From Candidatus Omnitrophota bacterium (lineage in GTDB: Bacteria; Omnitrophota; Gorgyraeia; 2-01-FULL-45-10), in NCBI GenBank assembly GCA_041648975.1, contig JBAZNZ010000001.1, positions 40,961 through 104,960 on the forward strand: a DNA stretch of 64,000 nucleotides. The letters run 5' to 3'. Shown piece after piece: positions 6,443 to 21,052 of this stretch. Positions within the stretch are counted from its first letter, which is position 1, and each line of letters opens with the position of its first letter. The notes below the pieces were generated by a model, which ran no database searches, was not told the origin of the DNA, and saw only the letters and a program-made list of their open reading frames with translations. Made by a program: the position numbers and the translations under genes.

Positions 6443-7180
6443 ATGGCAATGAACGCAAGAGACGCCTTGATAGTCGCCCTCGACATGGATAGCGAAGATA
6501 AGGCAATAAAAGCTGTCGAAAAGCTGAAAAACGATGTGCGGTTCTTCAAGGTGGGGCTGGAGCTATTCTCGTCGTGCGGGCCGGACATAGTAAGGCGCAT
6601 TAAAGAGGCCGGATGCGAAGTCTTCCTCGATCTTAAATTCCACGATATACCGAATACTGTAGCTAAGGCCGCCGTGTCCGCGGCAAGGCTCTCGCCGTTC
6701 ATGTTCAATGTTCATGCGCTCGGCGGGTACGATATGATGAAACGGACCGCCGAAGCGGTCGCGGAAGAAGCTAAGAAGTCTCCGGCGCGCTCAAGGCCGA
6801 AAGTCCTCGCGGTCACAATATTGACGAGCATGGACGAAAACGCTTTGGCAAGTATAGGTATAAAAGATAATGTGGAAAAGGCCGTATTAAGGCTGGCGGA
6901 GACGGCAAAGTCGGCCGGTCTTGACGGCGTCGTGGCCTCGCCCGCTGAGACCGCTCTTATAAGAGAGAAACTGGGCAAAGGCTTTTTAATAGTGACGCCG
7001 GGTGTGCGGCCTGCCTGGGCGGCTGTGAACGACCAGAAGAGGATAGCCACACCTAAGGACGCTATCGGCGCGGGGGCCGATTTCATAGTGGTTGGGCGGC
7101 CGATAACGGAAGCAAGAGATCCAGGTAAAGCTGTGCGGGAAATATTGGATGAAATGATCGAAATAGATAGAAATTTATAG
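6443..7180 (+). CDS. pyrF: orotidine 5'-phosphate decarboxylase
   Basis: ALDMD...FLDLKFHDIPNT motif (catalytic Asp/Lys). Start set at ATG 6443 after GAGGAG. The longer ORF begins at 6428. Confidence 0.85.
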   Translation: MAMNARDALIVALDMDSEDKAIKAVEKLKNDVRFFKVGLELFSSCGPDIVRRIKEAGCEVFLDLKFHDIPNTVAKAAVSAARLSPFMFNVHALGGYDMMKRTAEAVAEEAKKSPARSRPKVLAVTILTSMDENALASIGIKDNVEKAVLRLAETAKSAGLDGVVASPAETALIREKLGKGFLIVTPGVRPAWAAVNDQKRIATPKDAIGAGADFIVVGRPITEARDPGKAVREILDEMIEIDRNL

Positions 7181-7217
7181 AAATAAGTTGTGAATTGAAA
7201 AGGTTGAGGTAATTATA

Positions 7218-7829
7218 ATGACGGAAAAAGACGTATTGAAGATATTCGAGGACAACAACGCGCTTTTGACAGGCCACTTTAAGCTTTCAAGCGGCCTTCA
7301 TAGCGAGAAATATTTGCAGTGCGCGCTCGTCCTGCAATTCCCGGAGATCGCCCAGAAGCTGTCTGAGGAGCTGGCGAAGAAGTTTTCTAATCTCGGGAAG
7401 ATCGATCTTGTGGTAGGGCCGGCGCTGGGCGGAGTGACGCTGGCGTATGAGGTCGCGAGGGCGCTCGACGTAAGAGGGCTATTTACGGAGAGGCAAGAGG
7501 GCCCGCCTGCCGCGATAGAAATTCCGAGCAGTCGGGCAGGAAAGATGGTCCTTCGCAGAGGGTTTGCTATTAAAGCGGGTGAGAAGGCCCTGGTCGTGGA
7601 GGATGTCGTGACTACCGGCGGCTCGACGAAAGAGGTCATCGACGTAGTGAAGGCATGCGGGGGCGTAGTCGCGGGGGTCGGAAGCGTTATCGATAGGTCG
7701 AGCGCTCCCGTCGACTTCGGAGTGCCGTTCGCGGCGCTCGCCAGGGTGAAGGTCGAGACCTATAAAGAGGAAGCGTGCCCTCTCTGTAAAAAAGGTGTGC
7801 CGGTATACAAGCCGGGCTCGAGGAAGTAA
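7218..7829 (+). CDS. pyrE: orotate phosphoribosyltransferase
   Basis: 203-aa type I PRTase (VVEDVVTTGGS), last gene of the pyr cluster. Confidence 0.9.
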   Translation: MTEKDVLKIFEDNNALLTGHFKLSSGLHSEKYLQCALVLQFPEIAQKLSEELAKKFSNLGKIDLVVGPALGGVTLAYEVARALDVRGLFTERQEGPPAAIEIPSSRAGKMVLRRGFAIKAGEKALVVEDVVTTGGSTKEVIDVVKACGGVVAGVGSVIDRSSAPVDFGVPFAALARVKVETYKEEACPLCKKGVPVYKPGSRK

Positions 7830-7841
7830 AGCTTGTAATAC

Positions 7842-7887
7842 CAGAACCCTCGTGATATAGTAACATAACACTAATACGAGGGTTCTG
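7842..7887 (+). promoter_or_regulatory. 12-bp-stem hairpin between pyrE and the next ORF (CAGAACCCTCGT...ACGAGGGTTCTG)
   Basis: Perfect inverted repeat at 7842-7853 and 7876-7887 with a 22-nt loop and no T tract. The 3' arm contains the GAGGG RBS of the ORF at 7890. Confidence 0.4.
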
Positions 7888-7889
7888 TA

Positions 7890-8642
7890 ATGAAAGTTGA
7901 GGAAAGAAATAGGGCGCGACAATTACGCTCGAAGGGATGGTCTTTACGTGCCATAGCGTTTGAAATAAAGTGCTCTAAAAGCGTAGTAAGCAAGTGGATA
8001 TCGGACATACAATTAACAGAAAAACAGATAGAAAAATTAAAGGATAATCAAGATAGGGGACGAGCAAGGGCTGCTCAACATCCCAACAGCCCAAAAAAGA
8101 AATGGGAAAGAATAAGAAATGAGATTATCGAACAGTCATCGACAGAGATGCCAACGACCTTTTCAAAAACAGAGCTTAAAATTATAGGAGCCGCCCTATA
8201 TTGGGCTGAGGGATACAATGCTTCTCGAAATTATTTTTTGTTTACTAACTCTAATCCGGATATGATAAAAGTTATGATGCATTTTTTAAAAGAATGTTGC
8301 AATGTGCCGCTTAATAAAATTAAGGGGAGAGTTAATATCCACCCTCATCTGGATATTAAGAAAGCGGAAAAATTTTGGTTAAATGTTACTGGTATGCATA
8401 GATGTAACCTAAACAAACCGCTCCTGGCCGTAAGTAGAGCAAGCAAGCATAAAAAAGACACCTTACCTATGGGTACTTTTAATATAGGGATTTGTGATGT
8501 TTATTTGCTTTCAAAAGTTAAAGGGTGGATAAAAGGAATAGCCAAGGGGGCAGCTAGCTCAGTCGGTAGAGCATCCGGCTTACATCCGGAAGGTTCACAG
8601 GTTCGAGCCCTGTGCTGCCCACCAAATTTTACCAGAGTTTAA
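7890..8642 (+). CDS. HTH plus LAGLIDADG-like homing-endonuclease-like protein. The ORF reads through tRNA-Val, so the true C-terminus is uncertain
   Basis: N-terminal HTH (RNRARQLRSKGWSLRAIAFEIKCSKSVVSKWI), then IIGAALYWAEGY (a LAGLIDADG-like xxGxxxxxEG block). The reading frame has no stop before 8642 and overlaps tRNA-Val (8548-8624). Confidence 0.35.
   Translation: MKVEERNRARQLRSKGWSLRAIAFEIKCSKSVVSKWISDIQLTEKQIEKLKDNQDRGRARAAQHPNSPKKKWERIRNEIIEQSSTEMPTTFSKTELKIIGAALYWAEGYNASRNYFLFTNSNPDMIKVMMHFLKECCNVPLNKIKGRVNIHPHLDIKKAEKFWLNVTGMHRCNLNKPLLAVSRASKHKKDTLPMGTFNIGICDVYLLSKVKGWIKGIAKGAASSVGRASGLHPEGSQVRALCCPPNFTRV
8548..8624 (+). tRNA. tRNA-Val (anticodon TAC)
   Basis: Manual fold: acceptor GGGCAGC/GCTGCCC, anticodon arm TCCGG-CTTACAT-CCGGA, T arm ACAGG-TTCGAGC-CCTGT, encoded CCA. 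Confidence 0.85.
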
Positions 8643-8784
8643 CTCAAGTAAAATTTGTCCTGAGGAAGCTGAAGTTAGACTGTATGCTGACGAGGGGCTA
8701 CCTTTAAAAAGACTGCAGTTGTCTGAAAGGTTTTCCTTAATGTTCCTTTCCAAAATGGATGCAAAGAGGCGCAGAAAATAGTCC

Positions 8785-9033
8785 TTGATGAAAGAATGGG
8801 TTTTATATATAATTAAATGCCGCGACGGTTCATTATATACAGGTATTACGACCGATCTAAATAAGCGGCTTCGGCTTCACAACGAGGGTAAGGCATCGAA
8901 ATATACGCGATCCCGCAGGCCGGTCAGGCTGGCGCGTACAGAGGTCTTTAACAACGAATCTTCGGCAAGGAAGAGGGAGGCCGAGGTCAAAAGCCTTTCC
9001 CGCGCCGAGAAATTAGAATTAACAGCAAAATAG
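8785..9033 (+). CDS. GIY-YIG nuclease family protein (YhbQ/UPF0213-like), 82 aa
   Basis: WVLYIIKCRDGSLYTGITTDLNKRLRLHN is a canonical GIY-YIG signature. It ends 20 nt before tRNA-Asp. Confidence 0.75.
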   Translation: MMKEWVLYIIKCRDGSLYTGITTDLNKRLRLHNEGKASKYTRSRRPVRLARTEVFNNESSARKREAEVKSLSRAEKLELTAK

Positions 9034-9052
9034 CAGTTTAAGACACAAGACT

Positions 9053-9129
9053 GGGGACGTAGTTCAGTTGGTTAGAACGTCAGATTGTCGATCTGAAGGT
9101 CGCGGGTTCGACCCCCGTCGTCCCCGCCA
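9053..9129 (+). tRNA. tRNA-Asp (anticodon GTC), integration target of the island
   Basis: Acceptor GGGGACG/CGTCCCC, anticodon arm TCAGA-TTGTCGA-TCTGA, T arm GCGGG-TTCGACC-CCCGT, CCA encoded. The 3' 19 nt are repeated at 19436-19454. Confidence 0.85.
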
Positions 9130-9133
9130 TATA

Positions 9134-9165
9134 TAGCCGAGGGTAACACCTCGGCTATCTTTTTT
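9134..9165 (+). terminator. rho-independent terminator immediately after tRNA-Asp
   Basis: TAGCCGAGG-gtaaca-CCTCGGCTA stem-loop followed by TCTTTTTT. Confidence 0.6.
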
Positions 9166-9258
9166 ACGTCGGAGATCCTATTTGTCGTCGAGAAATCGTC
9201 GAGAGATAGGATTTTTTGTTTTCATGGCATTCTTGGAAATCTTGGTAATTTAGACACA

Positions 9259-9282
9259 TTTTGTCACGCGCTGTCACGCTGC
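9259..9282 (+). repeat. left arm-type repeat (TTTTGTCACGcgcTGTCACGCTGC), likely an integrase arm-binding site
   Basis: Direct TGTCACG repeats, and nearly the same 24-mer recurs at 19364-19387 near attR. Confidence 0.5.
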
Positions 9283-9398
9283 TACCCCACCGTCATTGCG
9301 AGGGCCGACCTGTCCTCCGAAGCTCGAAGAGCGAAGGAGGAAGGCCCGAAGCAATCTAATTCCCCGGGGATTGCCCCTATTTTTATAGAGGTAGCCCC

Positions 9399-9860
9399 AT
9401 GAAAGGCTACCAATTCCTTGAAAATGACTTCTTTGAACTTTGCCAGACCCGGGAGATAGGCCATACGCCTATGCTTCTCTATATCTACCTCAGAGGCCTA
9501 TTCTGCCGTTTCCAAAAGCCGATCTTTACCTGGCAGGACAAACAAACAATAAAACACCTCGGCATATCTCAAAGCACCCTCCTTAGAGCCAGGGAGTACC
9601 TCCAGACGCGGGGAATGATTAAATATGTGAGCGGCAAAGGCAGTCGGCATACCGAATATACCATGCTCGGCACCGTCCTTTTACCTATCATCAAAAAGAC
9701 GACAGGGTATCGTTACGCCAAGCCCATAAGGTATCGTCAAAATGACGACACCAATAATACGAGTAAAGAAAGATTAAAGAATATAGTAGGGAATGAAATA
9801 TTTAAGGGTATAACCGAAGAAGACAGGGCCTTTTTAAGGAACAAGGGGCTCTATGATTAG
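9399..9860 (+). CDS. hypothetical protein, possible winged-helix DNA-binding (phage/plasmid-like)
   Basis: 153-aa ORF, first gene inside the island. The central region TIKHLGISQSTLLRAREYLQTRGMIKY resembles an HTH. No catalytic motif. Confidence 0.4.
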   Translation: MKGYQFLENDFFELCQTREIGHTPMLLYIYLRGLFCRFQKPIFTWQDKQTIKHLGISQSTLLRAREYLQTRGMIKYVSGKGSRHTEYTMLGTVLLPIIKKTTGYRYAKPIRYRQNDDTNNTSKERLKNIVGNEIFKGITEEDRAFLRNKGLYD

Positions 9861-10074
9861 CCCGTGGAGCCTCATAAGGTGTCTAATATATCCCAAAACC
9901 TATATACGGGTGGATGTAATTTATGCCGCGGAAACCACCAAGGCTGTGTTAATCATATTCGACGGCCGAAAAGCATGGATACCTAAGGCCTGGATTGCGC
10001 GGCTTAAACGGACAGGAGGCAGATCTATTAAGATTAAAATATCAGATTATCACTGGGCCAAAAAATTTGCGTAG
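9853..10074 (+). CDS. hypothetical small protein (73 aa)
   Basis: ORF overlapping the previous stop (ATGA-type junction), basic C-terminus, no motif. Confidence 0.3.
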   Translation: MISPWSLIRCLIYPKTYIRVDVIYAAETTKAVLIIFDGRKAWIPKAWIARLKRTGGRSIKIKISDYHWAKKFA

Positions 10075-10165
10075 CATAGCGTTAAGAATCTAAAGCTAGT
10101 TTATCCCTTATCTATGATAGATGGTGTAAATCGTAAATAAGCACTTTATAATCTACGATACTCAT

Positions 10166-10296
10166 AAATTACTAATAAATTACTAATATCTACTAAATTA
10201 GTAATTTACTTGACATTTTTTTATATATTATGTACACTTATAATTGCAATTAGGCACTAAATACTAACCAATTACTAATGAAAGCTAAATTAGTAA
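10166..10296 (+). promoter_or_regulatory. cluster of AAATTACTAAT/ATTAGTAATTT dyad motifs flanking a TTGACA promoter upstream of the island Fic gene
   Basis: Copies at 10166-10176, 10177-10187 and 10197-10207 (inverted), plus 10270-10279 and 10287-10296 (inverted). TTGACA at 10210-10215. Confidence 0.45.
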
Positions 10297-10330
10297 CGGT
10301 ATATCTTTTGTAACTAAATAGGATGAAAAA

Positions 10331-11722
10331 ATGAAAATACCTGAAAATGCGCCAAAATTGGAATCACTAAAGCCGGGATATTTTGAAAAATTGTTTGATG
10401 TTCAAAGCTCAAAAGAAATGTCTTATATTGCTACATTGGCAAATAAGGAATATCTTTATTGGGATAAATTCAAATATCTTAATTTTCCCGAAACCGTCCC
10501 TCCAGATCTTGCCTGGATATCTCTTAAATTGACGCGAAATTCTCAAATTAAGAAAATACCGCTTCGCGATACTAATGGCCGATATTTCGGATGCTGGCTT
10601 CCGGATGAGGTGTTAAAATATTTGCATGAAATTGATCAAAAAGCAAGCGGCCAGATTCTCGTTGACGATCCAATGACTCATGCAGGCGAGAAAGAGCGAT
10701 ATTTAATTAATTCTATAATGGAAGAAGCTATCGCATCCAGCCAACTTGAGGGGGCAGCTATTACAAGAGAAAAAGCAAAAGAGATGCTGCGATTAGGAAA
10801 AAAGCCGGTCGACATTGCCGAACAGATGATATTAAATAATTATATTACAATAAGGGGTATAAAAAAAATTATAGACAAGCCATTATCCCGAGATCTAATT
10901 ATTAAAATACAGGCCTCAATAACCAAGGATACGCTTGAGAACGCTGATGCTGTGGGACGATTTAAGAAAAAAGGTGAAGAATATCAGGTTGTTGACCAGG
11001 GCGATGGAGTAGTTTTGTTTGATCCGCCGCCGGTGGATGAGATCGACGAGCGAATACAGGCTTTATGTGATTATGCGAACGAAACAAAAAACGATACCTT
11101 TATCCATCCCGTAGTCAAAGCAACCATATTGCATTTTTGGCTTGCGTATATACATCCGTTTGTCGACGGCAATGGAAGAACGGCAAGAGCTCTATTTTAT
11201 TGGCACATGTTAAAAAACAATTATTGGCTATTCGAGTATCTGTCTATTTCGCGAATATTGTACCGAACCCCGGAACAATACAAAAGAGCATTCGTCTATT
11301 CAGAAATTGACGAACAAGATATGACATACTTTTTGATGTTTAATGTGCGTGCAATCGATCTATCTATAAAAAGCCTGCATTTATATTTAGCCAAGCAACA
11401 ACAAGAATTTCAGGAAACAGTCGGACTAATACGAAAATATCCCGGCTTAAATCATCGGCAATGCGATCTTTTATATCATGCAGCTTCTCATCCGCGAGCC
11501 CTGTACACTGTCAAGTTTCAACAGAACGTTCATAATGTAGCATACCAGACCGCCAGGACCGATCTTTTAGAACTTGAGAAAAAAGGGTTTTTATCAAAGA
11601 TAAAAGCAAAAGGCAAGGAGTTTGTTTTTGTCCCAGCGAAAGAACTTCACTCAAAAATTAAAAACTTACTAACAAGTAGAAATTCCCATAATGGGAATAG
11701 CCCAGAAAGTGCCCACCCATGA
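10331..11722 (+). CDS. Fic/DOC family protein (463 aa) with C-terminal winged helix
   Basis: Fic active-site motif HPFVDGNGRTARAL (HPFx[DE]GNGR). Confidence 0.8.
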   Translation: MKIPENAPKLESLKPGYFEKLFDVQSSKEMSYIATLANKEYLYWDKFKYLNFPETVPPDLAWISLKLTRNSQIKKIPLRDTNGRYFGCWLPDEVLKYLHEIDQKASGQILVDDPMTHAGEKERYLINSIMEEAIASSQLEGAAITREKAKEMLRLGKKPVDIAEQMILNNYITIRGIKKIIDKPLSRDLIIKIQASITKDTLENADAVGRFKKKGEEYQVVDQGDGVVLFDPPPVDEIDERIQALCDYANETKNDTFIHPVVKATILHFWLAYIHPFVDGNGRTARALFYWHMLKNNYWLFEYLSISRILYRTPEQYKRAFVYSEIDEQDMTYFLMFNVRAIDLSIKSLHLYLAKQQQEFQETVGLIRKYPGLNHRQCDLLYHAASHPRALYTVKFQQNVHNVAYQTARTDLLELEKKGFLSKIKAKGKEFVFVPAKELHSKIKNLLTSRNSHNGNSPESAHP

Positions 11723-12122: not shown

Positions 12123-12127
12123 GAAAA

Positions 12128-12173
12128 AATAGGGACAGCGCTCATTTTTCGCAAAATAAATAGTCGCTGATCC
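12128..12173 (+). repeat. island 46-bp repeat copy R1 (AATAGGGACAGCGCTCATTTTTCGCAAAATAAATAGTCGCTGATCC)
   Basis: Member of a 7-copy family, 27 bp before the start of the 12201 gene. Confidence 0.85.
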
Positions 12174-12200
12174 TAAATAAGATGAATATGGAGTAAGCGC

Positions 12201-13448
12201 ATGGCAAGGGATGAAGCATTGTTTTGTAGACTGGGTGATATGCATGATTTTTTGGAAAAGCAAAAGCTTGGATACAGAGCTGAGATCGAATGTTTAAATA
12301 GAGATTACATTTTAAAAGTCAGCGAACAAGATTTATGCAAAAGCCTGATAGATAAACATACCCTAGAAACGCCTGCTTTACATGATGACAAATTATATGC
12401 CCTACCCGCAAGAGACGCAAATATAGATGTAAGCGGTAGGTGTGATTATGCAATATCTAGGCGCGAGAGTCCTTATTATGTTAAAGGTACTTCTATAACA
12501 ATAGCCATTCCATTTGAAGGCGATGGACAATTTTTCGAGTTCAGCCCGTCAGTCTATACATCGTATTTTCCTCGAGGGGTCATAACAGACAATGAAATTC
12601 TTCTCACATATAACGGTGTAAACATGGAACCTGCAAAAGTCAAAAGTGAATACGAAAATGACGTGAAAATAATAAAGGAACATTTGAGATCCATCTCTAA
12701 CATGGTAAAGCAACACAATGGATTTATAGAATCAGAAACAAAACGGCTTGTTGCAAATCGAAAAGACAAAATATTAAAAGAGCATAATTTAGTAGCCGCT
12801 CTCGGAATACCGATAAAAAGGCGGGAAGATTCACCAGCCACTTATACTATTCCTACCGTTCGAAGAAAACCCAAAATAGAATTACCTAAGGTTGGGGGTG
12901 GTGTTTTTAAACCAGAACCCACATTAGCCGAAACCGAATATGAACATATCTTAAAAATAATACACGATATGGCATTGGTGCTCGAAAGAAGTCCACGCGT
13001 ATTTATCGATATTAAAGAAGAAAACTTGCGAACACATTTCTTAGTTCAGCTTAATGGTCAGTATGAAGGAAAAGCAACAGGAGAAACATTTAATTTCAAC
13101 GGAAAAACAGACATTTTAATTCGAGATGACGGAGGAAATATATTTATTGCAGAATGTAAATTCTGGACTGGAGACAAAGGATTTACGGAAACAATAGACC
13201 AACTTTTAAAATATGTAACTTGGCGCGATACCAAAACGGCAATCATTCTTTTTAATAGGAACAAAGAGCTCTCATCTGTTTTATCAAAAATACCAGAGAT
13301 TGTAAAATCTCATAAATGCTTCAAGCGCGAACTTGGTAACAAAAATGAAACGTCTTTTAAGTATGTCTTTCAGCAACCTAGCGATTTGAATAGGGAATTA
13401 CTTTTAACAGTAATGGTGTTTGATGTACCAACAGAATTTAAAAGCTAA
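12201..13448 (+). CDS. PD-(D/E)xK nuclease-fold protein (415 aa), possible standalone defence nuclease
   Basis: C-terminal region E-x(n)-D-x(n)-ECK: KTDILIRDDGGNIFIAECKFW, a restriction-endonuclease-like core. N-terminal 250 aa have no recognisable domain. Confidence 0.45.
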   Translation: MARDEALFCRLGDMHDFLEKQKLGYRAEIECLNRDYILKVSEQDLCKSLIDKHTLETPALHDDKLYALPARDANIDVSGRCDYAISRRESPYYVKGTSITIAIPFEGDGQFFEFSPSVYTSYFPRGVITDNEILLTYNGVNMEPAKVKSEYENDVKIIKEHLRSISNMVKQHNGFIESETKRLVANRKDKILKEHNLVAALGIPIKRREDSPATYTIPTVRRKPKIELPKVGGGVFKPEPTLAETEYEHILKIIHDMALVLERSPRVFIDIKEENLRTHFLVQLNGQYEGKATGETFNFNGKTDILIRDDGGNIFIAECKFWTGDKGFTETIDQLLKYVTWRDTKTAIILFNRNKELSSVLSKIPEIVKSHKCFKRELGNKNETSFKYVFQQPSDLNRELLLTVMVFDVPTEFKS

Positions 13449-13483
13449 AATGACCAAGCAAGTGAGTGTGTCTAATAATAAAA

Positions 13484-13529
13484 AATAGAGACAGCACCTA
13501 TTTTTTGCAAAATAAATAGTCACTAACTC
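13484..13529 (+). repeat. island repeat copy R2 (diverged: AATAGAGACAGCACCTATTTTTTGCAAAATAAATAGTCACTAACTC)
   Basis: Same family, 33 bp upstream of the 13563 ORF. Confidence 0.8.
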
Positions 13530-13562
13530 AAATTGGCAGAAAATAATATTAGGAGATAAAAA

Positions 13563-13781: not shown

Positions 13782-13812
13782 TCTATGCAAAAAAGGCGAA
13801 TGGTTAGAAATG

Positions 13813-13855
13813 AGGAACGGTGTCTATCTTTTGCAGAATAAATAGTCGCCGACCC
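13813..13855 (+). repeat. island repeat copy R3 (diverged)
   Basis: AGGAACGGTGTCTATCTTTTGCAGAATAAATAGTCGCCGACCC, 34 bp upstream of the 13890 ORF. Confidence 0.75.
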
Positions 13856-13889
13856 GATTTAGGATTTTACTCAATTCCATCTAATAATT

Positions 13890-14642
13890 ATGGCTATTAA
13901 TTTTAATTCTATAAGAAATTTTATAAGGTATGGAGTAGATGTTAATAAACCTTTTTTAAAACTGTATGATATAGAAAAATTACGGCTTGATATAGAAGGG
14001 CTAAATCATAATATCAAAACGATCGATTATTATATGAGATCAGACCTTGACCCAGAGAATTTTTATTTAGAGCCAAATAAAGAGTTTTATAAAATGACAT
14101 TAAATGCCCAGGCAAATGTTATGCTGAACAGAATTGGATTTTCTCAAATTGATTGCCTAGTATGTTTTAGTAAAATTAAAGGAGCGGGACTTTTTATTGA
14201 AAAGCCAATCCCGTCTTTTAATATAAATGATAAAAGCCTATCATGGTCCAATAAAAATATTTCTCTCGAAATACAAATTTCATCTGCATTTAGAAATAAC
14301 CCTTTAATCATATCTGGAATTTTAGCGCATGAAATAACACATTTTTATTTTAAAAAGAAAAACTTAGGTAAATTATTCGATGCAAAAATTTCAGAAGAAA
14401 ATAATTGTGACCTGTCATCATTTTTGCTTGGATTTGGTAAGTTTGTTCTTAATAGTATTGGAGAGACAGGTAGAAATAGCGCTGATGCGGCAATTAAAAT
14501 AAAACATTATTTACCATGGTATTACCTTTGCTATATTTATGAAACGATAAATAGGATAAAAGCAATCTCAGAGGATATTTCGCAAAAAAATCTTACCAAT
14601 AGAGCGCTGAGTATGCTGTATGAGATTAACAGATGTTTTTAG
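13890..14642 (+). CDS. hypothetical protein with an HExxH zinc-metallopeptidase-like motif (250 aa)
   Basis: ILAHEITHFYF contains HEITH (HExxH). Asn/Lys-rich, no signal peptide. Confidence 0.4.
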   Translation: MAINFNSIRNFIRYGVDVNKPFLKLYDIEKLRLDIEGLNHNIKTIDYYMRSDLDPENFYLEPNKEFYKMTLNAQANVMLNRIGFSQIDCLVCFSKIKGAGLFIEKPIPSFNINDKSLSWSNKNISLEIQISSAFRNNPLIISGILAHEITHFYFKKKNLGKLFDAKISEENNCDLSSFLLGFGKFVLNSIGETGRNSADAAIKIKHYLPWYYLCYIYETINRIKAISEDISQKNLTNRALSMLYEINRCF

Positions 14643-14659
14643 AAAATTAAGAATACCGA

Positions 14660-14691
14660 AAATTTTTCGCAAAATAAATAGTCGCTGACCC
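14660..14691 (+). repeat. island repeat copy R4 (5'-truncated; no ORF follows before R5)
   Basis: AAATTTTTCGCAAAATAAATAGTCGCTGACCC lacks the GGGACAGCGCCC left part. Confidence 0.75.
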
Positions 14692-14744
14692 TAATTATTC
14701 TACATTGCCACCTCATGAAGGTATGAGAATACCTATAAGGAAAA

Positions 14745-14790
14745 AATAGGCGCAGTGCCCATTTTTCGCAAAATAAATAGTCGCTGACCC
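14745..14790 (+). repeat. island repeat copy R5
   Basis: AATAGGCGCAGTGCCCATTTTTCGCAAAATAAATAGTCGCTGACCC, 53 bp upstream of the 14843 ORF. Confidence 0.85.
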
Positions 14791-14842
14791 CCTTAAACAT
14801 TTAAACATTAAAGCATTAAAGAGAAAAGAATTAGGAGGAGAT

Positions 14843-15106
14843 ATGAACAAAACGTTATTATTTATTCTGGCATTGTTTTTAGTTTTATTACCAAATGTCT
14901 GTTTTTCCCAAATAGATAGGGATATTGACAATGATGGCGTTTGGGATGCTGACAAGGGCGGAGTTGATAGAGACTTAGATAATGACGGAGTTTGGGATTC
15001 CAATCAAGGTGGCGTGGACAGAGATATTGACAATGATGGCGTTTGGGATGCTGACAAGGGCGGAGTTGATCGAGACTTAGACAACGATGGCGTGTGGGAT
15101 CAATAA
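14843..15106 (+). CDS. secreted Ca-binding-repeat protein (87 aa; signal peptide plus 4x DxDxDG loops)
   Basis: N-terminal signal peptide MNKTLLFILALFLVLLPNVCFS. Four DRD(I/L)DNDGVWD loops matching the DxDxDG calcium-binding motif. Confidence 0.55.
   Translation: MNKTLLFILALFLVLLPNVCFSQIDRDIDNDGVWDADKGGVDRDLDNDGVWDSNQGGVDRDIDNDGVWDADKGGVDRDLDNDGVWDQ
14921..15103 (+). repeat. near-perfect 102-bp tandem duplication inside the Ca-binding-repeat gene
   Basis: GATATTGACAATGATGGCGTTTGGGATGCTGACAAGGGCGGAGTTGAT recurs at 14921 and 15023 with a 102-bp period. Each unit contains two 51-bp half repeats. Confidence 0.8.
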
Positions 15107-15118
15107 GAAGAGTAGAGA

Positions 15119-15173
15119 AATAGAACAGCGCCCATTTTTCGCAAAATAAATAGTCGCTGATCCTAATTATCTG
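15119..15173 (+). repeat. island repeat copy R6
   Basis: AATAGAACAGCGCCCATTTTTCGCAAAATAAATAGTCGCTGATCC, about 47 bp upstream of the 15218 ORF. Confidence 0.85.
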
Positions 15174-15499: not shown

Positions 15500-16639
15500 A
15501 TGAAACGAACTATCCTAGCAATAGTTTTTCTTTTCACCTTAGCCCTTACCAGTGCTGCTTACGAATCATCTCCTGCCCAAGTTACCGATATATCCGACCG
15601 AGCGTATGAAGGGGCGATTATAAAGCTGCTCGACAGCGCGAAGCAGTCGATAACCATATCGATGTACACCATCACGCTGGCAAGCGAGAAGCGCAATCCG
15701 ATATCGATGCTTCTGAATGACCTGTTGGAGGCGCGGTCGCGCGGCGTAGCGGTAACCCTCTATCTCAATACGCGGTTCAAAGGCGATAAGGATATCCGCG
15801 GTAACCTGGAACGAAATCCCGCACTCAAGAAACTGCAGGACGCCGGATGCGTGATACACTTCATGGCGCCGAACAAACGGCTCCACGATAAGCTTATCAT
15901 AGTTGACGGCCGGTACGTGGTAGAAGGCTCGACCAACTGGTCTCTCTCGGCGCTATTGGATAATTACGAGTCAGCTACATTGATAGATTCGCCGGGACTC
16001 GCGCGCGTAAAACTCATGCGGCTTCAGGCGATGGCGCTCGCCGGAGAAGAAGCTCCGGGAGCGCTCGAGATAAAGCGCTCATTATATTCGGATAAGATGC
16101 CTGCCGAAATAGGACTACCCGAAGTTCTTCTTACCGATAGGCGGTACTTCCCGAAAATGGTAACAGAGAGAGATGAGCGCGCTATGGACGCGTATCTAGT
16201 CTTGTCGGCTATCTCGGCCGCGGGTGGGGACAATGAATTTTTCGTGGATCTTGAGTCGCTGGCTGTCAGCCTGGGGCTCAAGGCAGACGCCACGGACAGC
16301 GATCTCAGGCGCCAGGCGATCCGCTGGCTGAAAGATCTCGATGAGAACTACAAACTCATAGAGGTCCGCTTCTTCCATGGCAAGGATGCTCATGTGAAAC
16401 TTGTCACGCTTGAGGGGCCCCGCTTCCGGATAGGTTCGGCGATAACGCTCCCTGCGACCGACGGCAAGCTTTCGGCGCGAGTCAAGTTCATGAGAATGAT
16501 TAAGGCATATCTCGATGCACGCGGCGAGGATATAAATGCAATCTCCGACTATGAGCTTGCCGGCCGGTTTTACGCCAGCCGGCGGATGTTTTGTGACGCG
16601 CGAAGGGACATGTTAAAAGGGAATATAGGGGAAAGATAA
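15500..16639 (+). CDS. secreted phospholipase D/nuclease-family (single HKD) protein, 379 aa
   Basis: Signal peptide MKRTILAIVFLFTLALTSAA. HKD motif HDKLIIVDGRYVVEGSTNWS (HxK-x4-D-x6-GSxN), then a C-terminal domain of unknown function. Confidence 0.65.
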   Translation: MKRTILAIVFLFTLALTSAAYESSPAQVTDISDRAYEGAIIKLLDSAKQSITISMYTITLASEKRNPISMLLNDLLEARSRGVAVTLYLNTRFKGDKDIRGNLERNPALKKLQDAGCVIHFMAPNKRLHDKLIIVDGRYVVEGSTNWSLSALLDNYESATLIDSPGLARVKLMRLQAMALAGEEAPGALEIKRSLYSDKMPAEIGLPEVLLTDRRYFPKMVTERDERAMDAYLVLSAISAAGGDNEFFVDLESLAVSLGLKADATDSDLRRQAIRWLKDLDENYKLIEVRFFHGKDAHVKLVTLEGPRFRIGSAITLPATDGKLSARVKFMRMIKAYLDARGEDINAISDYELAGRFYASRRMFCDARRDMLKGNIGER

Positions 16640-16832: not shown

Positions 16833-17612
16833 ATGAAGAAAACGCTTAAAGGTGATATATATTATTTTGTGGATGAATCGGGCGATCCCTGTTTCTATGA
16901 TAAGAACGGCAATTATATCGTAGGACAAGAAGGGTGTTCAAAAATGCTTATGCTTGGCTTTATCCAAACGGATGAACCTAAGCATATAAGAAAGGCTCTT
17001 GACGAGGTGCGGGAGAAAATTAAGAATGATCAGTATTTAAAAGAGATCCCATCCATTGAAAAATCATTGAAACATTTCCACGCTACCGATGACTGTCCAG
17101 AGGTGAGGCAGGCAGTATATAATTGTTTGAGCACGCTTAATTTTAAGGCCCAATTCGTGGTTGCACGTAAAATCGAAGGTGTTTTTAAGAAGCACGACTG
17201 CGATGAGAATAAGTTCTACGATTCGCTCATAGAGCATTTATTCAAAAACGTTCTTCACAGAGCGGAGACGAACCACATCTATTTTTCAAAGCGCGGATCC
17301 AGCACCAGGCAAGAGCCGCTGGAAAAGGCGATTGACCGCGCCAAGAATCAGTTTGAGAAGAAGTTTTTTATTAAAGTACGCTCTAACGTTGATATTCAGT
17401 CTCAGGTTCCTACAGGGGAGCCGTGTTTACAGGTAATCGATTACATGAACTGGGCCATACAGAGAGTATTTGTAAAGGGTGAGATGAGGTACTTTAATTT
17501 TGTGAAGGATAAGGTGAGTTTTGTCTGGGATATTTATGATACGGGCAAATACCCTAAGAACTTTTATAGCAAGGCGAATGAACTTGATAGCAAAAAAACA
17601 AGCCTTCTATAG
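16833..17612 (+). CDS. DUF3800 family protein (259 aa)
   Basis: N-terminal DIYYFVDESGD motif typical of DUF3800. Confidence 0.6.
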   Translation: MKKTLKGDIYYFVDESGDPCFYDKNGNYIVGQEGCSKMLMLGFIQTDEPKHIRKALDEVREKIKNDQYLKEIPSIEKSLKHFHATDDCPEVRQAVYNCLSTLNFKAQFVVARKIEGVFKKHDCDENKFYDSLIEHLFKNVLHRAETNHIYFSKRGSSTRQEPLEKAIDRAKNQFEKKFFIKVRSNVDIQSQVPTGEPCLQVIDYMNWAIQRVFVKGEMRYFNFVKDKVSFVWDIYDTGKYPKNFYSKANELDSKKTSLL

Positions 17613-18053: not shown

Positions 18054-18239
18054 ATGACGCTTGTAACGGCAAAAGAGGTGTCGGAGAAGTATAGCATTCC
18101 CCCGGGAACGGTCTATTACTATGTCTCAAGGAACGAGATCCCGCACTATCAAATAAGGGGCAGAAGAAAATTTAACCCTGTTGAAATAGAAAATTGGATC
18201 AACCAGGGGAGATCGAGTGTCAATTCTAAAGTTTGGTAG
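18054..18239 (+). CDS. excisionase/Xis-family DNA-binding protein (HTH_17-like), 61 aa
   Basis: YSIPPGTVYYYVSRNEIPHYQIRGRRKF is an excisionase-type HTH, directly upstream of and overlapping the integrase. Confidence 0.65.
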   Translation: MTLVTAKEVSEKYSIPPGTVYYYVSRNEIPHYQIRGRRKFNPVEIENWINQGRSSVNSKVW

Positions 18240-19287
18240 GATATACAGTCGGAACGACAGCCCGTTCTTATGGATCTGGTACTATGATGCCAACGGGAAA
18301 AGGCACAGAGAGAGCACCGAGACAAATAATAAGAAGCTGGCAGAGGAGATACTTCATAGCAGGATTATCGAATTTCAAAGCCTGCAAAACGGCAATAAGA
18401 CAGTCAGCGATATGCCGTATGCACATTTCTCAGCGGAATTTCTAAAGCACTATAAAGCGCGGTATCCCTATGAGACATTTAAATCTCACAGCAGCGCGGT
18501 CAATGAGTTCACCAAATTCTTAAACTTTGCCGGTATAAGCCGATTATCCGAGATCACGACGGCGGTAATAGATAAATATATTACATACCTGAGAGAATCA
18601 AAGGGGAATAGGGCCAATACCTGCAATAACCACCTGAAGAATATCAAAACCCAGTTCAATTTTGCGATCAGTCATAATTTAATGAGAGAGAATCCGGCCA
18701 AGAGTTGCCGGAAGGTCGAAGTAAACGACGCTAAGAAGAAGAGCGCCCTTTCGCCAGATGAATATAAGAGTTTTATGGCGATCGCGGAAAAGGAACACCC
18801 ACACTACTATCCGATATACTACACCTTTATCCATACCGGCCTTAGGTTTACGGAGCTGATCAAATTAAAGTGGCAGGATATCGACTTTGAGAATAAAGTG
18901 CTATGGATCATGAAGCCCAAGTGCAAGAAGAAGCCGGATTTTGTCAGTATGCACGATAGTCTTATAAGGACTCTGGAGGATTTAAAGAAAGAGAGCGACA
19001 GCGAATATGTCTTTACCGATGAAAAAGGCGAGCCGTTTGGATTTAGGACCCGGAAGATCATACGACGGCTGAAAAACATACTAAAAACGGCCAATATTGC
19101 CAGCATAAGCACCGTTCACGAGCTCAGGCATACACATTGCAGCTACCTTTTCAATATAGGGCTCAATACGCGAGAAGTCATGGAGCAGATGAGGCATACA
19201 GAGATGAGGACCACGGAAGGGTATGCGCATATATTTAGGCCGGAAGCCAATAGGAAAATAAAGAAATTGGAGAGGTTGGATCGATGA
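18217..19287 (+). CDS. tyrosine-type site-specific integrase (phage integrase family)
   Basis: Catalytic region TGLRFTELIKLKWQDI...ELRHTHCSYLF...TTEGYAHI (R...HxxR...Y), with an N-terminal SAM-like core-binding domain. Adjacent to attR. Confidence 0.85.
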   Translation: MSILKFGRIYSRNDSPFLWIWYYDANGKRHRESTETNNKKLAEEILHSRIIEFQSLQNGNKTVSDMPYAHFSAEFLKHYKARYPYETFKSHSSAVNEFTKFLNFAGISRLSEITTAVIDKYITYLRESKGNRANTCNNHLKNIKTQFNFAISHNLMRENPAKSCRKVEVNDAKKKSALSPDEYKSFMAIAEKEHPHYYPIYYTFIHTGLRFTELIKLKWQDIDFENKVLWIMKPKCKKKPDFVSMHDSLIRTLEDLKKESDSEYVFTDEKGEPFGFRTRKIIRRLKNILKTANIASISTVHELRHTHCSYLFNIGLNTREVMEQMRHTEMRTTEGYAHIFRPEANRKIKKLERLDR

Positions 19288-19404: not shown

Positions 19405-19809
19405 TTACCGACGGAGAGACCACTTCACGTCACACACCCCCGTCGTCCCCGCCAATTGGTAAAGGGAGCGCTCGATAGATAATGTCGGAAGGTACCTTCC
19501 GACGAAAAATTTATCCGCCGCCATATAAAAGTAGTAACTGGTTAAATACCAGCCCTTTAGCCGTAACAAGTTGATAACACGACTGGTTACGGCTATTTTA
19601 TTTGTCTTGCGTGTTTTGAGAATTAGTAAGTTGACAGACGTCCTATTTAGCACGCTTGAAAGCATAGCTACATCATGTTCAGTGAATGCAAACGGTAATA
19701 TGTAAGAATGTTTCCTTGTTTTGAACTGGTGCCAAATTGGCACCAGTTCCTTCCATTCCTCATCGGTAAGTTGAAACATAAATTCTTTAGGAGATCTCAC
19801 GGGACACAT
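19405..19809 (-). pseudogene. N-terminally truncated ORF6N-domain protein whose 3' end runs into attR
   Basis: FMFQLTDEEWKELV...LPFAFTEHDVAMLSSVLN matches the conserved ORF6N core, but the about 40-aa N-terminal part typical of the family is absent. The last about 10 codons lie in attR/island DNA. Confidence 0.35.
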
Positions 19810-19891: not shown

Positions 19892-21052
19892 TTACTTCGG
19901 GTCAAATATTTTTAATAGTTCTTCCGCGCAGTATATCTTCCCGCGTTCTTTATCCGTAGTTTCAGTTAGTATATTCATCGACTCTAACTTCTCTACGGCA
20001 GCCTTGGCCGTATGGAACGAGGTCTTAAGCGCCTCAGCGGTTCTTGGTATGCTTATGTATGGATTTTTTGATATAAGGTCGAGCAATTTAAACACATACA
20101 TGGAAGGTCTTTTTTGCTCAACCCGTTTCCTGTAATTATCCAACAAGGCGAGTATGGCCCTTGAATTTTCGACAGCATTCTTCGACTCATCCGCTATCGC
20201 TTTTAAGAAGAATTTAATCCATCCTGGCCAGTCTCCTCTCTGGCTTACGCCAAGAAGCCTCTCGTAATACTGGCTACGATTCCTATCGAAATAAGCGCTT
20301 AAGCACAACAAAGGATATTTCAAATATTCTCTTTCGCACAAAAAAATCATGGTTAATAACCTGCCCATCCTTCCGTTGCCATCGAGAAATGGATGTATCG
20401 CTTCAAATTGATAATGCGTTACCGCGCACTGCACCAGTCCGTCGAGGGCGTCTCTATTGTGAATAAACTTTTCAAGATCGCTTAACGCATCTTTCATTGC
20501 TTCAACGGGAGGCGGTACATAGGTTGCATCATTAAGAGTGCAGCCTCCGGGACCGATCCAATTTTGACTTTTGCGGAATTCTCCCGGTGTCAAATGCTGA
20601 CCTCTTACACCTTTCATGAGAATAGAGTGTATTTCTTTAATAAGGCGCAGCGATATTGGCAATGTACCGAGTCTTTTAATCCCATAATCGACGGCCTTGA
20701 CATAATTGACGACTTCCAGCACATCTGTCCTGCCGGCCTCTTTTTTCTGCTCGGCCTTACGGGCTGCTTCAAAATAGAATAATTCCGAAAGAGATGTCTG
20801 GGTACCTTCTATCCTGGAACTTAGGACAGCCTCTTTCCTAACGTATGGAATAATCAAAAGCGCCGGATTGGGCAGCTGCATTCCTACACCGTTCAGATTT
20901 CCCAGATTCCGGCTTGCCTCAGACAACAATTGTACAAAACTTTCATCATAAGTAATTTTTGGAGGCAACGGATTGGGAATAAAAGCAAAGTATCCTTTTT
21001 GAGTATTGATTACTTTACCAGCCGAGCTATCCCTGAAGGCATCGTTATCCAT
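19892..21052 (-). CDS. Fic/DOC family protein (386 aa) with Fic_N-like N-terminus
   Basis: HPFLDGNGRMGRLL Fic motif. Second Fic gene, lying outside the island. Confidence 0.8.
   Translation of the reverse strand: MDNDAFRDSSAGKVINTQKGYFAFIPNPLPPKITYDESFVQLLSEASRNLGNLNGVGMQLPNPALLIIPYVRKEAVLSSRIEGTQTSLSELFYFEAARKAEQKKEAGRTDVLEVVNYVKAVDYGIKRLGTLPISLRLIKEIHSILMKGVRGQHLTPGEFRKSQNWIGPGGCTLNDATYVPPPVEAMKDALSDLEKFIHNRDALDGLVQCAVTHYQFEAIHPFLDGNGRMGRLLTMIFLCEREYLKYPLLCLSAYFDRNRSQYYERLLGVSQRGDWPGWIKFFLKAIADESKNAVENSRAILALLDNYRKRVEQKRPSMYVFKLLDLISKNPYISIPRTAEALKTSFHTAKAAVEKLESMNILTETTDKERGKIYCAEELLKIFDPK

Follow-up and report, generated by a model that had tools for sequence, protein, structure and literature searches.

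Identification of the gene

Does the 415-amino-acid protein encoded in this stretch of Candidatus Omnitrophota DNA (64,000 nucleotides, called the window below) belong to a bacterial defence system, and is its C-terminal half a nuclease? The first-pass annotation had proposed a stand-alone defence protein, and its reading of the gene was confirmed exactly (forward strand, ATG start, 415 aa). The two segments that it had quoted, EENLRTHFLVQL and GKTDILIRDDGGNIFIAECKFW, were both present in the translation. The gene and its ribosome-binding site are as follows.

12201..13448, + strand: complete PDC-S54-family gene, 415 aa, ATG start, stop codon within the range
12190..12193, + strand: ribosome-binding site GGAG (Shine-Dalgarno), 7 nt 5' of the ATG, read off the sequence

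The protein was identical to a hypothetical protein from a Candidatus Omnitrophota MAG. Neither the whole protein nor its halves had any match in Pfam, NCBIfam or PHROGs, and Pfam searches of 32 homologues at E<=10 returned only scattered coiled-coil noise with no consistent weak signal. Searched against PDB sequences, the single protein and the full-length and C-domain profiles returned nothing beyond Cas4 at E 0.69 and coiled-coil/actinin noise. The PADLOC scan of the protein matched PDC-S54 (PDLC05036) with an E-value of 1.1e-150 and 500.6 bits, covering residues 1-411 against model positions 1-408 of 410, and apart from one noise match nothing else was found. The earlier statement that nothing matches the first 250 or so residues is true of Pfam, NCBIfam, PHROGs and PDB sequences, but not of PADLOC, where PDC-S54 spans the whole protein.

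The protein is a member of the already catalogued and widespread single-gene defence candidate family PDC-S54, and since the PADLOC model already covers it, the proposal of a defence role is a re-derived prediction. The PDCs are 145 untested candidates nominated by their embedding in BREX, DISARM or type I restriction-modification (RM) loci (Payne et al. bioRxiv 10.1101/2024.01.29.577857). PADLOC lists PDC-S54 without a description or domain analysis and records no experiment on it, and our literature search found no mention or experimental test of it. Of eight other PDC/HEC candidates, a set that does not include PDC-S54, four gave E. coli protection against phage (PMC12881386).

Genomic island and the 55-nt repeat

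The gene was said to lie on an island, and the island is real: it has low GC, it is inserted at tRNA-Asp, and 19-nt direct repeats flank a tyrosine integrase.

9111..9129, + strand: attL, 19-nt direct repeat at the tRNA-Asp 3' end, left border of the ~10.3-kb island
12125..12179, + strand: 55-nt repeat copy 1, ending 22 nt before the start codon
18054-18239, preceding the integrase: excisionase-like HTH gene (mad1/HTH match 9.8e-09)
18217..19287, + strand: tyrosine integrase (Pfam Phage_integrase 7.5e-26)
19436..19454, + strand: attR, second copy of the 19-nt repeat, ACCCCCGTCGTCCCCGCCA, right border of the island

The island also carries Fic, small ORFs, a PLD nuclease, DUF3800 and the integrase. 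Pfam and PADLOC detected no type I RM gene near this copy in the window, so this member of PDC-S54 sits on a tRNA-Asp integrative island and is not embedded in an RM locus.

The 55-nt repeat occurs in five further copies before or between the next small genes, up to position 15169, and a seventh copy was found at ~59373-59420, beyond the island. The copy outside the island indicates that the repeat is spread genome-wide and does not mark cassettes specifically. The description of the gene as the first of a repeat-punctuated cassette array is correct as to the placement of the repeats, which precede this gene and the next small genes, but not as to their specificity for cassettes. An integron cassette array was rejected: on reading the sequence, the repeats have no attC R''/R' ends (RYYYAAC...GTTRRRY), the integrase is an ordinary tRNA-site tyrosine type located at the distal end of an island bounded by att repeats, and one copy of the 55-nt repeat lies outside that island. 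Sigma-70 promoters were also rejected, there being no consensus promoter match at the repeats. The repeat had no Rfam match and no exact match in metagenome contigs, and it folded only into a weak hairpin (-4.2 kcal/mol).

C-terminal domain

The C-terminal domain and its putative catalytic residues were located as follows.

12930..13430, + strand: C-terminal domain, residues 244-410, PD-(D/E)xK-like, alpha-beta-beta-beta-alpha-beta core with three extra strands; proposed DNase effector
13017..13022, + strand: E273-E274, start of core helix alpha1 (helix 273-287 in the model); putative metal-site glutamate
13110..13112, + strand: D304 in GKTDILIR, on beta2; putative catalytic aspartate
13152..13160, + strand: E318-C319-K320 in IAECKFW, on beta3; putative (D/E)xK
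13200..13214, + strand: Q334-L-L-K-Y338 (QxxxY), on core helix alpha2

The E...D...ExK motif was borne out by the alignment of 194 near-full-length homologues, where E273, E274, R277, D304, E318, C319, K320, Q334 and Y338 are each at least 97% conserved. The motif residues are also kept in an E. coli relative at 29% identity, and 13 residues lie between D304 and E318. Pairwise identity was 70% in the effector core versus 34-40% in the N-terminal module, as would be expected of a conserved effector joined to a faster-evolving sensor.

The AF2 model of the domain alone had pLDDT 86 and pTM 0.86. In its own numbering it consists of a helix at 34-48, strands at 53-58, 62-70 (with D65) and 73-82 (with E79 and K81), a helix at 86-99 (with Q95 and Y99) and a strand at 106-113, and the full-length model gave the same order. 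Compared by the secondary-structure order of the AF2 models and not by coordinates, the domain has two features of the PD-(D/E)xK superfamily: the D, (D/E)xK and helix E residues, and the alpha-beta-beta-beta-alpha-beta order with D on beta2 and ExK on beta3.

Foldseek searches of the PDB with the full-length and domain models gave nothing at E<=0.001 (E 0.014-0.025, TM at most 0.32). The search of viral structures gave nothing significant, and its named weak matches were mostly endonuclease-like. McrC (7vsr_M) superposed best in both PDB searches and ranked first by E-value in the full-length search, though not significantly. The top ranks of the domain search were taken by Pol beta-type nucleotidyltransferases. 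The Pol beta/lambda/TUT7 entries were rejected as fold matches: the domain search superposed them at an rmsd of 13-18 A (TM<=0.30), and the full-length search aligned them over only 47-70 columns. The G[GS]...DxD motif of nucleotidyltransferases was also absent from the sequence.

Among the profile comparisons, hhalign of the C-domain against a 114-sequence McrC profile was the best of all, with E 0.0015, a probability of only 17% and the catalytic residues in register. An 8-sequence HsdR-N profile gave no significant score, although it aligned ExK in the correct register. With single sequences of McrC, HsdR, Mrr and a plasmid PDDEXK_1 protein, hhalign gave no separation from negative controls (the control LgoD scored 8.4%, McrC 5.7%), and the profile HMM search of PDB sequences with the C-domain gave no PD-(D/E)xK match. 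That PD-(D/E)xK domains can evade sequence and Foldseek searches is well established. The proposed structure prediction gave a divided result: the motif residues stand at canonical positions of a confident model, but neither fold nor profile comparisons gave a significant match.

The nearest resemblance that we found for the catalytic core is McrC, the PD-(D/E)xK subunit of the type IV McrBC system (PF10117; PDB 6hz4, 7vsr). TDILIR, IAECKFW and QLLKY of our protein align with TDITIR, IVDAKYY and QLMNY, so that D304, E318 and K320 correspond to McrC D244, D257 and K259. All Pfam-annotated McrC homologues retrieved carry PF10117, whereas the members of PDC-S54 do not. The McrC N-terminal half is also unrelated to the N-terminal module of PDC-S54 (hhalign 0.5%), and, unlike McrC, the protein has no McrB AAA+ GTPase neighbour in the window, nor does any ATPase or GTPase recur as a partner of its homologues at the 80 loci surveyed below.

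The protein shares the E, D, ExK and QxxxY set with Cas4/RecB nucleases, and GKTDILIR...IAECK aligns with GRADAIIR...VIEIK of 4IC1 at a non-significant E of 0.69, this structure being Cas4 SSO0001 (PMC5704561). Unlike Cas4, it matched neither Cas_Cas4 (PF01930) nor PDDEXK_1 (PF12705), and it lacks the four-cysteine Fe-S signature, only C319 and C373 being conserved. A neighbouring plasmid gene at the locus of a homologue (L015) served as a positive control and matched both Pfam families.

The C-terminal domain may instead be an unrelated alpha/beta fold whose conserved residues serve other chemistry or binding, so that the nuclease label would be wrong even for a defence protein. In its favour, a confident model (pTM 0.86) had no match at E<=0.001 among either PDB or viral structures, Pol beta-type entries led the Foldseek ranking, the hhalign probabilities are low, and 32 members gave no Pfam nuclease at E<=10. 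Against it, the Pol beta superpositions are not real fold matches, and the strands and helices follow exactly the canonical order, with E, D, ExK and QxxxY each at its canonical place. Three independent weak comparisons, with Cas4 (phmmer), McrC (Foldseek and hhalign) and HsdR (hhalign), also align the same residues, which counts for PD-(D/E)xK. We consider the unrelated fold unlikely; the PD-(D/E)xK assignment fits the motif conservation, the predicted secondary-structure order and the weak in-register matches.

N-terminal module and linker

12201..12815, + strand: N-terminal module (N-module), residues 1-205, three helices, a small beta-sheet and a 57-residue helix (144-200); proposed sensor/oligomerisation part
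12816..12929, + strand: linker, residues 206-243, basic, proline-rich, predicted disordered, conserved

The N-module was mostly modelled at pLDDT 80-93 over residues 11-190, falling to 62 at 81-90, and had no Pfam, NCBIfam, PDB or PHROG match. Its homologues form 4,419 representative clusters (E<=1e-3), in some of which it is fused to other effectors: TIR_2 (five verified), HEPN_Swt1 or Schlafen AlbA_2. P91, G96, P104, G107, E132, N173 and R187 are constant across these architectures. The C-domain was likewise found with another N-terminus, on the E. coli plasmid pEC_CBJ3C beside a DEAD/DEAH helicase and a retron. These fusions of the N-module to TIR, HEPN and Schlafen, and the nuclease-like domain with alternative N-termini, are new here.

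The effector parts of the fusions match other PADLOC candidates, PDC-S66 and PDC-M34B, and the PDC-S54 HMM matches the TIR, HEPN and Schlafen proteins via the N-module alone, with E of about 1e-45 to 1e-56. The PDC-S54 "family" is thus really a modular set, and in annotation the PADLOC model will call such proteins "S54" through the common N-module.

The linker (consensus IKRREDxPxTYxIPxxRRKPKIExPK...EP) was modelled at pLDDT below 50 over residues 208-239, and its mean pairwise identity is 48% versus 34-40% for the folded N-module; across the 194 homologues T214, E239 and P240 are conserved at 97% or more. It is within the linker that effectors are swapped, and the HEPN and TIR variants keep part of it. 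Whole proteins of the modular set are only about 360-460 residues long.

The first-pass annotation had called the protein Shedu-like. The likeness to Shedu (SduA) is one of architecture alone: in both, one polypeptide carries a regulatory or sensing region at its N-terminus and a PD-(D/E)xK-type effector at its C-terminus, and domains are swapped. The protein and 32 homologues at E<=10 had no Pfam match to DUF4263 (PF14082), and no Shedu model of PADLOC matched, which places it outside Shedu. Shedu proteins combine a constant nuclease with varying N-termini, whereas in PDC-S54 the N-module is more widely shared and the effectors vary, the nuclease also occurring with alternative N-termini. Avs/NLR-like and ABC-3C effector sets likewise combine one conserved module with alternative toxic effectors. 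They differ in having a STAND or ABC NTPase, which PDC-S54 lacks; its shared module is only about 205 residues and belongs to no known family. One module with interchangeable toxic effectors is a recognised signature of abortive-infection immune proteins.

Distribution and gene neighbourhoods

The PDC-S54 family comprises more than 6,900 clusters at 90% identity among the candidates scored. It occurs in at least 542 species-representative genomes, from many bacterial phyla and from Asgard and Bathyarchaeia archaea, and homologues were found on 21 plasmids and 2 phages. For the neighbourhood survey that had been proposed, 80 species-level loci with 10-kb flanks were taken and the neighbours were clustered all-against-all by BLAST. 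No obligate partner gene was found in the 80 loci: the commonest neighbour family, HsdM, occurred in ten, and none was near-universal. The lack of a conserved partner agrees with the listing of PDC-S54 as a single-gene system.

Type I RM genes were present within the fetched flanks at 15 of the 80 loci and absent from them at the other 65. The gene is embedded in 6 of the 80, and an hsd gene overlaps it or lies within 41 nt in 9. At one locus (L002) the homologue stands between hsdM and hsdS with overlapping stop and start codons, and at another the order is HsdM-Fic-homologue. One homologue lies immediately 3' of hsdMSR on an integrase island, and one shares an islet with Fic and TIR within a trp operon. 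The commonest immediate neighbours are HsdS/HsdM, mad5, NYN, integrases, ResIII and GmrSD; relaxases and transposases were also found. Certain homologues stand alone amid housekeeping genes. The surroundings expected of a defence gene were found in part: they are rich in defence or mobilome genes, with no obligate partner, but some homologues are solitary in housekeeping surroundings. The family shows the embedding by which the PDCs were nominated, while the copy in this window does not. The PDC-S54 family is very widespread and horizontally mobile, and lies often in or beside type I RM operons, other defence genes or mobile genes.

The close placement with hsd genes raises the possibility of an accessory or "guardian" of type I RM, like PrrC with EcoprrI, which would be latent in the RM complex and released when a phage inhibits restriction. 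Translationally coupled placement within hsd operons agrees with such a role, as does the nomination of the PDCs by embedding itself. However, this window and 65 of 80 loci have no type I RM gene, which means that the protein must function, or at least persist, without RM, and no RM subunit co-varies with it. We hold a guardian role to be very unlikely.

Equally improbable in our judgement is a non-defence role in mobile elements, as an addiction or stability toxin or as a nuclease of inter-element competition or recombination, hitch-hiking in defence islands. The integrative island here, the plasmids and phages elsewhere and the integrase, relaxase and transposase neighbours speak for this. 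The gene has no conserved antitoxin-like or recombinase partner, however, it sits inside RM operons and not at element ends, and the range of TIR, HEPN, Schlafen and PD-(D/E)xK effectors on one N-module is typical of immune proteins.

The protein may also be a stand-alone type IV or type IIM-style restriction enzyme, in which the N-module would read a feature of foreign DNA (e.g. base modification), the McrC-like domain would cut and the host would survive. McrC, a type IV nuclease, is the nearest relative at the motif level and by Foldseek. Both McrC and PDC-S54 are associated with type I RM loci, type IV enzymes typically lying beside type I RM (mcrBC-hsdRMS-mrr in E. coli K-12), and GmrSD-type enzymes occur among the neighbours. 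Such an enzyme needs no partner or methyltransferase, in agreement with the solo, widely transferred distribution. But the N-module is also carried by TIR, HEPN and Schlafen proteins, which are not directed at a sequence or modification on DNA, and this makes a reader of DNA modification less likely. It also lacks any recognisable modified-DNA reader of the single-chain type IV enzymes (SRA, EVE, YTH or Mrr winged helix) by Pfam, NCBIfam and PDB comparison, though it may be a reader of novel fold, and there is no McrB-like GTPase partner. We rate this enzyme as unlikely, with more in its favour than a guardian or mobile-element role.

Proposed function

The explanation that we prefer, and consider fairly likely, is a modular immune protein that works on its own, belongs to the PDC-S54 candidate family and is encoded on a tRNA-Asp-integrated island. 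Judged by its architecture, it is probably a sensor-plus-effector protein acting by abortive infection. The N-module may sense an infection cue, oligomerise via its 57-residue helix, or both. This would release or assemble the C-terminal domain as a Mg2+-dependent PD-(D/E)xK DNase, and the activated putative DNase would degrade DNA. The infected cell would most likely undergo abortive infection or stop growing, rather than carry out sequence-specific restriction, because the effectors found in place of the nuclease (TIR NADase, HEPN RNase, Schlafen) are toxic without discrimination. If the nuclease were toxic at all times, the cell would have to keep it in check, and this analysis identified no means of control. 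The original proposal, a stand-alone defence protein whose C-terminal part is a PD-(D/E)xK-like effector and whose N-terminal part is sensor-like, is supported computationally, but the fold has no significant match and the candidate is not new.

A broader reading, which we offer tentatively and rate as rather doubtful, takes the N-module and linker as an undescribed and very widespread infection-sensing or oligomerising domain. It would define a superfamily of compact single-protein abortive-infection systems in bacteria and archaea, each with its own effector (PD-(D/E)xK DNase, TIR NADase, HEPN RNase or Schlafen). PDC-S54 and parts of both PDC-S66 and PDC-M34B would then belong to one modular system, in which the linker might be an autoinhibitory tether or a trigger-binding element.

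The gene alone adds little, being a further copy of a catalogued defence-candidate family. The value lies at the family level: a Pfam orphan present in hundreds of bacterial and archaeal species, with a portable half joined to four classes of toxic effector and a nuclease-like half that resembles the McrC catalytic core and is too divergent for standard detection. PDC-S54 is a well-defined experimental target, with a short single gene, clear putative catalytic residues and natural effector-swap variants, and it could help to discover a new phage-sensing domain.

Identity of the gene and its family

The first-pass annotation had proposed a candidate single-gene defence nuclease with E / D / ExK motif segments. 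Its ORF was found exactly as claimed, with an ATG start and the quoted segments present in the translation.

12201-13448, + strand: gene under study, 415 aa
7 nt upstream of the 12201 ATG, + strand: ribosome-binding site GGAG

GC content around the gene is low, at 31-44% compared with 51-57% in the flanks. The motif goes beyond chance: E273, E274, R277, D304, E318, C319, K320, Q334 and Y338 are the same in all 32 diverse homologues aligned and at least 97% conserved in 194 near-full-length members of PDC-S54, a PADLOC model of a candidate phage-defence family.

The protein had no match in Pfam, NCBIfam or PHROGs. In PADLOC-DB it matched PDC-S54 over its full length (E 1.1e-150, residues 1-411 against model positions 1-408 of 410), and by all computable criteria the gene is a member of this family. 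PDC stands for phage defence candidate; 145 of them were taken from genes embedded in BREX, DISARM and type I RM loci and entered PADLOC explicitly as untested candidates (Payne et al., bioRxiv 10.1101/2024.01.29.577857). A 2026 survey reported the majority of PDCs as still unvalidated (PMC12988326), and four of eight assayed PDC/HEC candidates, S54 not among them, protected E. coli (PMC12881386). No mention of PDC-S54 was found in the literature searched. Because the match is full-length and PDCs are catalogued as untested candidates, the defence prediction for this gene is already in PADLOC, and the first-pass annotation re-derived it independently; the gene adds one member to a catalogued family.

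The protein has the same sequence as a hypothetical protein from a Candidatus Omnitrophota MAG. The family comprises more than 6,900 clusters at E<=1e-3 among 8,000 candidates scored, with relatives in at least 542 species-representative genomes, including Planctomycetota, Acidobacteriota, Chloroflexota, Cyanobacteria, Pseudomonadota, Nitrospirota, Patescibacteria, Asgard archaea and Bathyarchaeia. Relatives were also found on 21 plasmids, haloarchaeal and Spiroplasma ones among them, and in two phage records. One of the latter (phage NatCom_35866, PV036449.1, 1437-2705) is a full-length divergent homologue with 29% identity, located near one end of a 64.8-kb gut Caudoviricetes genome and adjoining transposase fragments and a DNA invertase. 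PDC-S54 genes may be morons of phages or prophages.

Domain structure

The full-length protein was modelled by AlphaFold2 with the 32-sequence alignment as input, giving two confident modules and a disordered segment between them. The N-module (residues 1-200) has three helices and a small sheet, and ends in a 57-residue helix (144-200). The linker is basic and proline-rich (9 K/R and 7 P in 43 residues), and its residues 208-239 have pLDDT <50; disordered in the model, it is yet better conserved than the folded N-module (mean pairwise identity 48% vs 34-40%). The C-domain (residues 244-408) gave pLDDT 86 and pTM 0.86 when modelled alone, and its core is the most conserved part, with 70% mean pairwise identity.

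In the predicted model the C-domain follows the order alpha-beta-beta-beta-alpha-beta. The first helix begins with E273/E274 and the helix after the strands bears Q334xxxY338, with D304 on beta2 and E318-x-K320 on beta3 in between. This arrangement agrees with what is reportedly the canonical placement of the PD-(D/E)xK motif. In a weak hhalign comparison with McrC, TDILIR/TDITIR, IAECKFW/IVDAKYY and QLLKY/QLMNY were paired, which sets D304, E318 and K320 on McrC D244, D257 and K259, presumably the McrC catalytic residues. A similarly weak hhalign comparison with the HsdR N-domain profile placed D on D and ExK on ExK, and phmmer against Cas4 SSO0001 (4IC1; PMC5704561) aligned GKTDILIR...IAECK with GRADAIIR...VIEIK (E 0.69). 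Thus the same residues line up in three independent comparisons, each of them weak. In each of the two PDB searches by Foldseek, McrC (7vsr_M, identity confirmed) superposed best, and with the full-length model it also had the top E-value; the named weak matches in the Foldseek viral library were mostly endonuclease-like. For the proposed PD-(D/E)xK core, motif placement and strand/helix order are thus canonical in the model, and the matches to known nucleases fall short of significance. That the C-domain is something other than a nuclease appears unlikely.

The gene is not a member of Cas4, McrC or Shedu: the defining Pfam/HMM matches are absent, as are the Fe-S cysteines of Cas4 and the McrB partner of McrC. 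The description "Shedu-like" holds for the outline, which is similar to Shedu-type and other sensor-effector single-protein systems.

The N-module with other effectors

A profile of residues 1-205 was searched against 1.84 billion representative proteins and matched 4,419 at E<=1e-3 and 2,666 at E<=1e-10. In nearly all of the 150 listed matches the N-module is at the extreme N-terminus. We analysed 148 of these locally: 68 have the PDC-S54 C-domain in full or truncated form, about 19 run on for more than 60 residues without it, and most of the others are fragments stopping soon past the N-module. By Pfam, the N-module is followed by TIR_2 in P0244, P0262, P0307, P0323 and P0363, by HEPN_Swt1 in P0273 and by Schlafen AlbA_2 in P0355 (all proteins from this search). 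The N-module is kept across all architectures (invariant P91, G96, P104, G107, E132, N173 and R187), and conservation extends through the "LGIPIK" linker start, so that the swap point lies inside the linker. The C-terminal part of the TIR variant matches PADLOC PDC-S66 (6e-65), and the HEPN part matches PDC-M34B (7e-27).

A single module combined with interchangeable TIR, HEPN, Schlafen or nuclease effectors is the recognised architecture of abortive-infection immune proteins. In our view no other computational result speaks as strongly for a defence role as this effector swapping. It also counts against the N-module as a reader of DNA modification, and a type IV-style restriction enzyme, for which such a reader would be expected, is improbable. 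In the sensor-effector reading, the N-module would detect an infection cue and/or oligomerise via its long helix, the conserved flexible linker would position or restrain the effector, and the activated C-domain would cleave DNA in a metal-dependent manner. Because the sister architectures bring NADase or RNase effectors, the infected cell would probably stop growing or die.

Through the N-module alone, TIR, HEPN, Schlafen and other variants (P0244, P0307, P0323, P0273, P0355, P0291) score E 1e-45 to 1e-56 against the PDC-S54 HMM; P0244 has matches to PDC-S54 and PDC-S66 alike. "PDC-S54" calls made automatically by PADLOC may therefore group proteins with different effectors.

The nuclease-like C-domain also occurs with an unrelated N-terminus, on E. 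coli plasmid pEC_CBJ3C (NZ_ON960341.1):

6488-7522: 344-aa Pfam-orphan protein, C-domain only, 29% identity, PADLOC 9e-38 over residues 178-341
7851-10913: 1,020-aa DEAD/DEAH helicase (ResIII/SWI2_SNF2), after the 344-aa protein

A retron Ec78/PtuA system lies nearby. The pair recalls Hachiman and could constitute a two-gene defence system not yet described.

Neighbourhoods of homologues

Sampled homologues (X) were found in an hsdM-X-hsdS-DUF3800-hsdR locus with overlapping stop/start codons, in the order hsdM-Fic-X, immediately 3' of hsdMSR on an integrase island, in a Fic/excisionase/TIR islet that splits a trp operon, on a resolvase/DUF3800/Mom island, and once solitary amid housekeeping genes. 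Neighbours of plasmid homologues included HsdS, RelE/HigA, a restriction endonuclease, a methyltransferase and a PDDEXK_1 nuclease.

In an unbiased survey, adjacent ORFs of 80 species-level loci were clustered all against all. No neighbour family occurred in more than 10 of the 80 loci, and hence PDC-S54 has no obligate partner. HsdM, HsdR, HsdS and Fic recurred, and after them came an ABC/AAA_21 ATPase cluster and a relaxase/MarR-type cluster. A search with phmmer seeds placed type I RM genes within the fetched flanks in 15/80 loci; the homologue was embedded between RM genes in six, and an RM gene overlapped it or lay within 41 nt in nine. By rough estimate rather than computation, about 1% would be expected for a random gene. 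A guardian of type I RM in the manner of PrrC seems very unlikely. The commonest families among 150 immediate flanking genes were type I S and M subunits, MADS mad5, NYN, integrases, ResIII and GmrSD. Consistent housekeeping contexts, named beforehand as evidence against a defence role, were not seen in the survey, although a fraction of homologues are solitary. A non-defence role in mobile elements has a slim probability.

Fic genes occurred near homologues in 4/80 survey loci and two sampled contigs (L009, L011/L017, L021, L040, L058), directly upstream in the cases examined. Both Fic and PDC-S54 genes are commonly embedded in type I RM operons, and their pairing may reflect a functional link or mere common habitat. 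DUF3800 genes adjoin homologues at two loci (L001, L002).

The integrative island

The gene is carried on a low-GC integrative island of about 10.3 kb, as 19-nt tRNA-Asp direct repeats flank it and an integrase and an excisionase-like gene lie beside the second copy; the earlier island assignment stands.

9111-9129: attL-side repeat, last 19 nt of tRNA-Asp, ACCCCCGTCGTCCCCGCCA
10331-11722, + strand: Fic-domain protein upstream of the PDC-S54 gene, SoFic-like (1.7e-45)
12125-12179, 13481-13535, 13807-13861, 14643-14697, 14742-14796, 15115-15169: six copies of a 55-nt repeat
13890-14642, + strand: 250-aa ORF with HExxH-like "AHEITH" motif
14843-15106, + strand: 87-aa ORF, signal-peptide-like start, three to four tandem 51-nt repeats
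15500-16639, + strand: PLD-family nuclease (PLDc_2 3e-21; DrmC 2.5e-20; NucT-like)
16833-17612, + strand: DUF3800 protein after the PLD nuclease (PADLOC DUF3800_VII 5.7e-32)
18054-18239: excisionase-like HTH gene, island end far from the tRNA
18217-19287: tyrosine integrase, same end
19436-19454: second copy of the 19-nt repeat, just past the integrase
19892-21052, - strand: bona fide SoFic defence gene just outside attR (PADLOC SoFic 2.7e-123)
21220-22506, + strand: 428-aa ORF just outside attR, P-loop-like GARQTGKT
about 59373-59420: seventh copy of the 55-nt repeat, far outside the island

The island also contains several small ORFs. The PLD nuclease has a hydrophobic signal-peptide-like N-terminus and a C-terminal extension of about 200 residues. 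The 250-aa ORF, for which Pfam, NCBIfam, PADLOC and PHROGs gave nothing, could from its motif encode an orphan metalloprotease-like protein. The 51-nt repeats encode DRDxDNDGVWDxxxGGV units resembling thrombospondin type 3 calcium-binding repeats (TSP_3, E 0.0024), an odd passenger on a defence island. The SoFic gene and 428-aa ORF just past attR, in DNA still low in GC, suggest a second islet adjoining at the same tRNA hotspot.

The 55-nt repeats, described earlier as punctuating a cassette array, are a real direct-repeat family with a nearly invariant core (CGCAAAATAAATAGTC). Five island copies lie 22-47 nt upstream of ORF starts, copy 14643-14697 adjoins the 250-aa ORF's stop codon without a gap, and the seventh is 63 nt upstream of an unrelated 337-aa ORF (59472-60485). 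They fold into only a weak conserved hairpin with two compensatory pairs, match neither the sigma-70 consensus nor any Rfam family, and gave no exact 26-mer match in metagenome contigs. Since they are not attC-like and one copy is outside the island, an integron-like array was rejected. In this Omnitrophota genome the repeat may serve as a promoter, operator or 5'-UTR element specific to the lineage.

Significance

PDC-S54 was already known as a candidate, and the gene itself will not surprise a specialist. What is added concerns the family: its N-module is a modular unit, its proposed nuclease core aligns in an McrC-like register, and it is spread broadly across archaea and bacteria. A caveat is also new, namely that non-nuclease variants are picked up by the PDC-S54 HMM. 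For anyone seeking a new sensing domain, the family offers a clean and tractable target.
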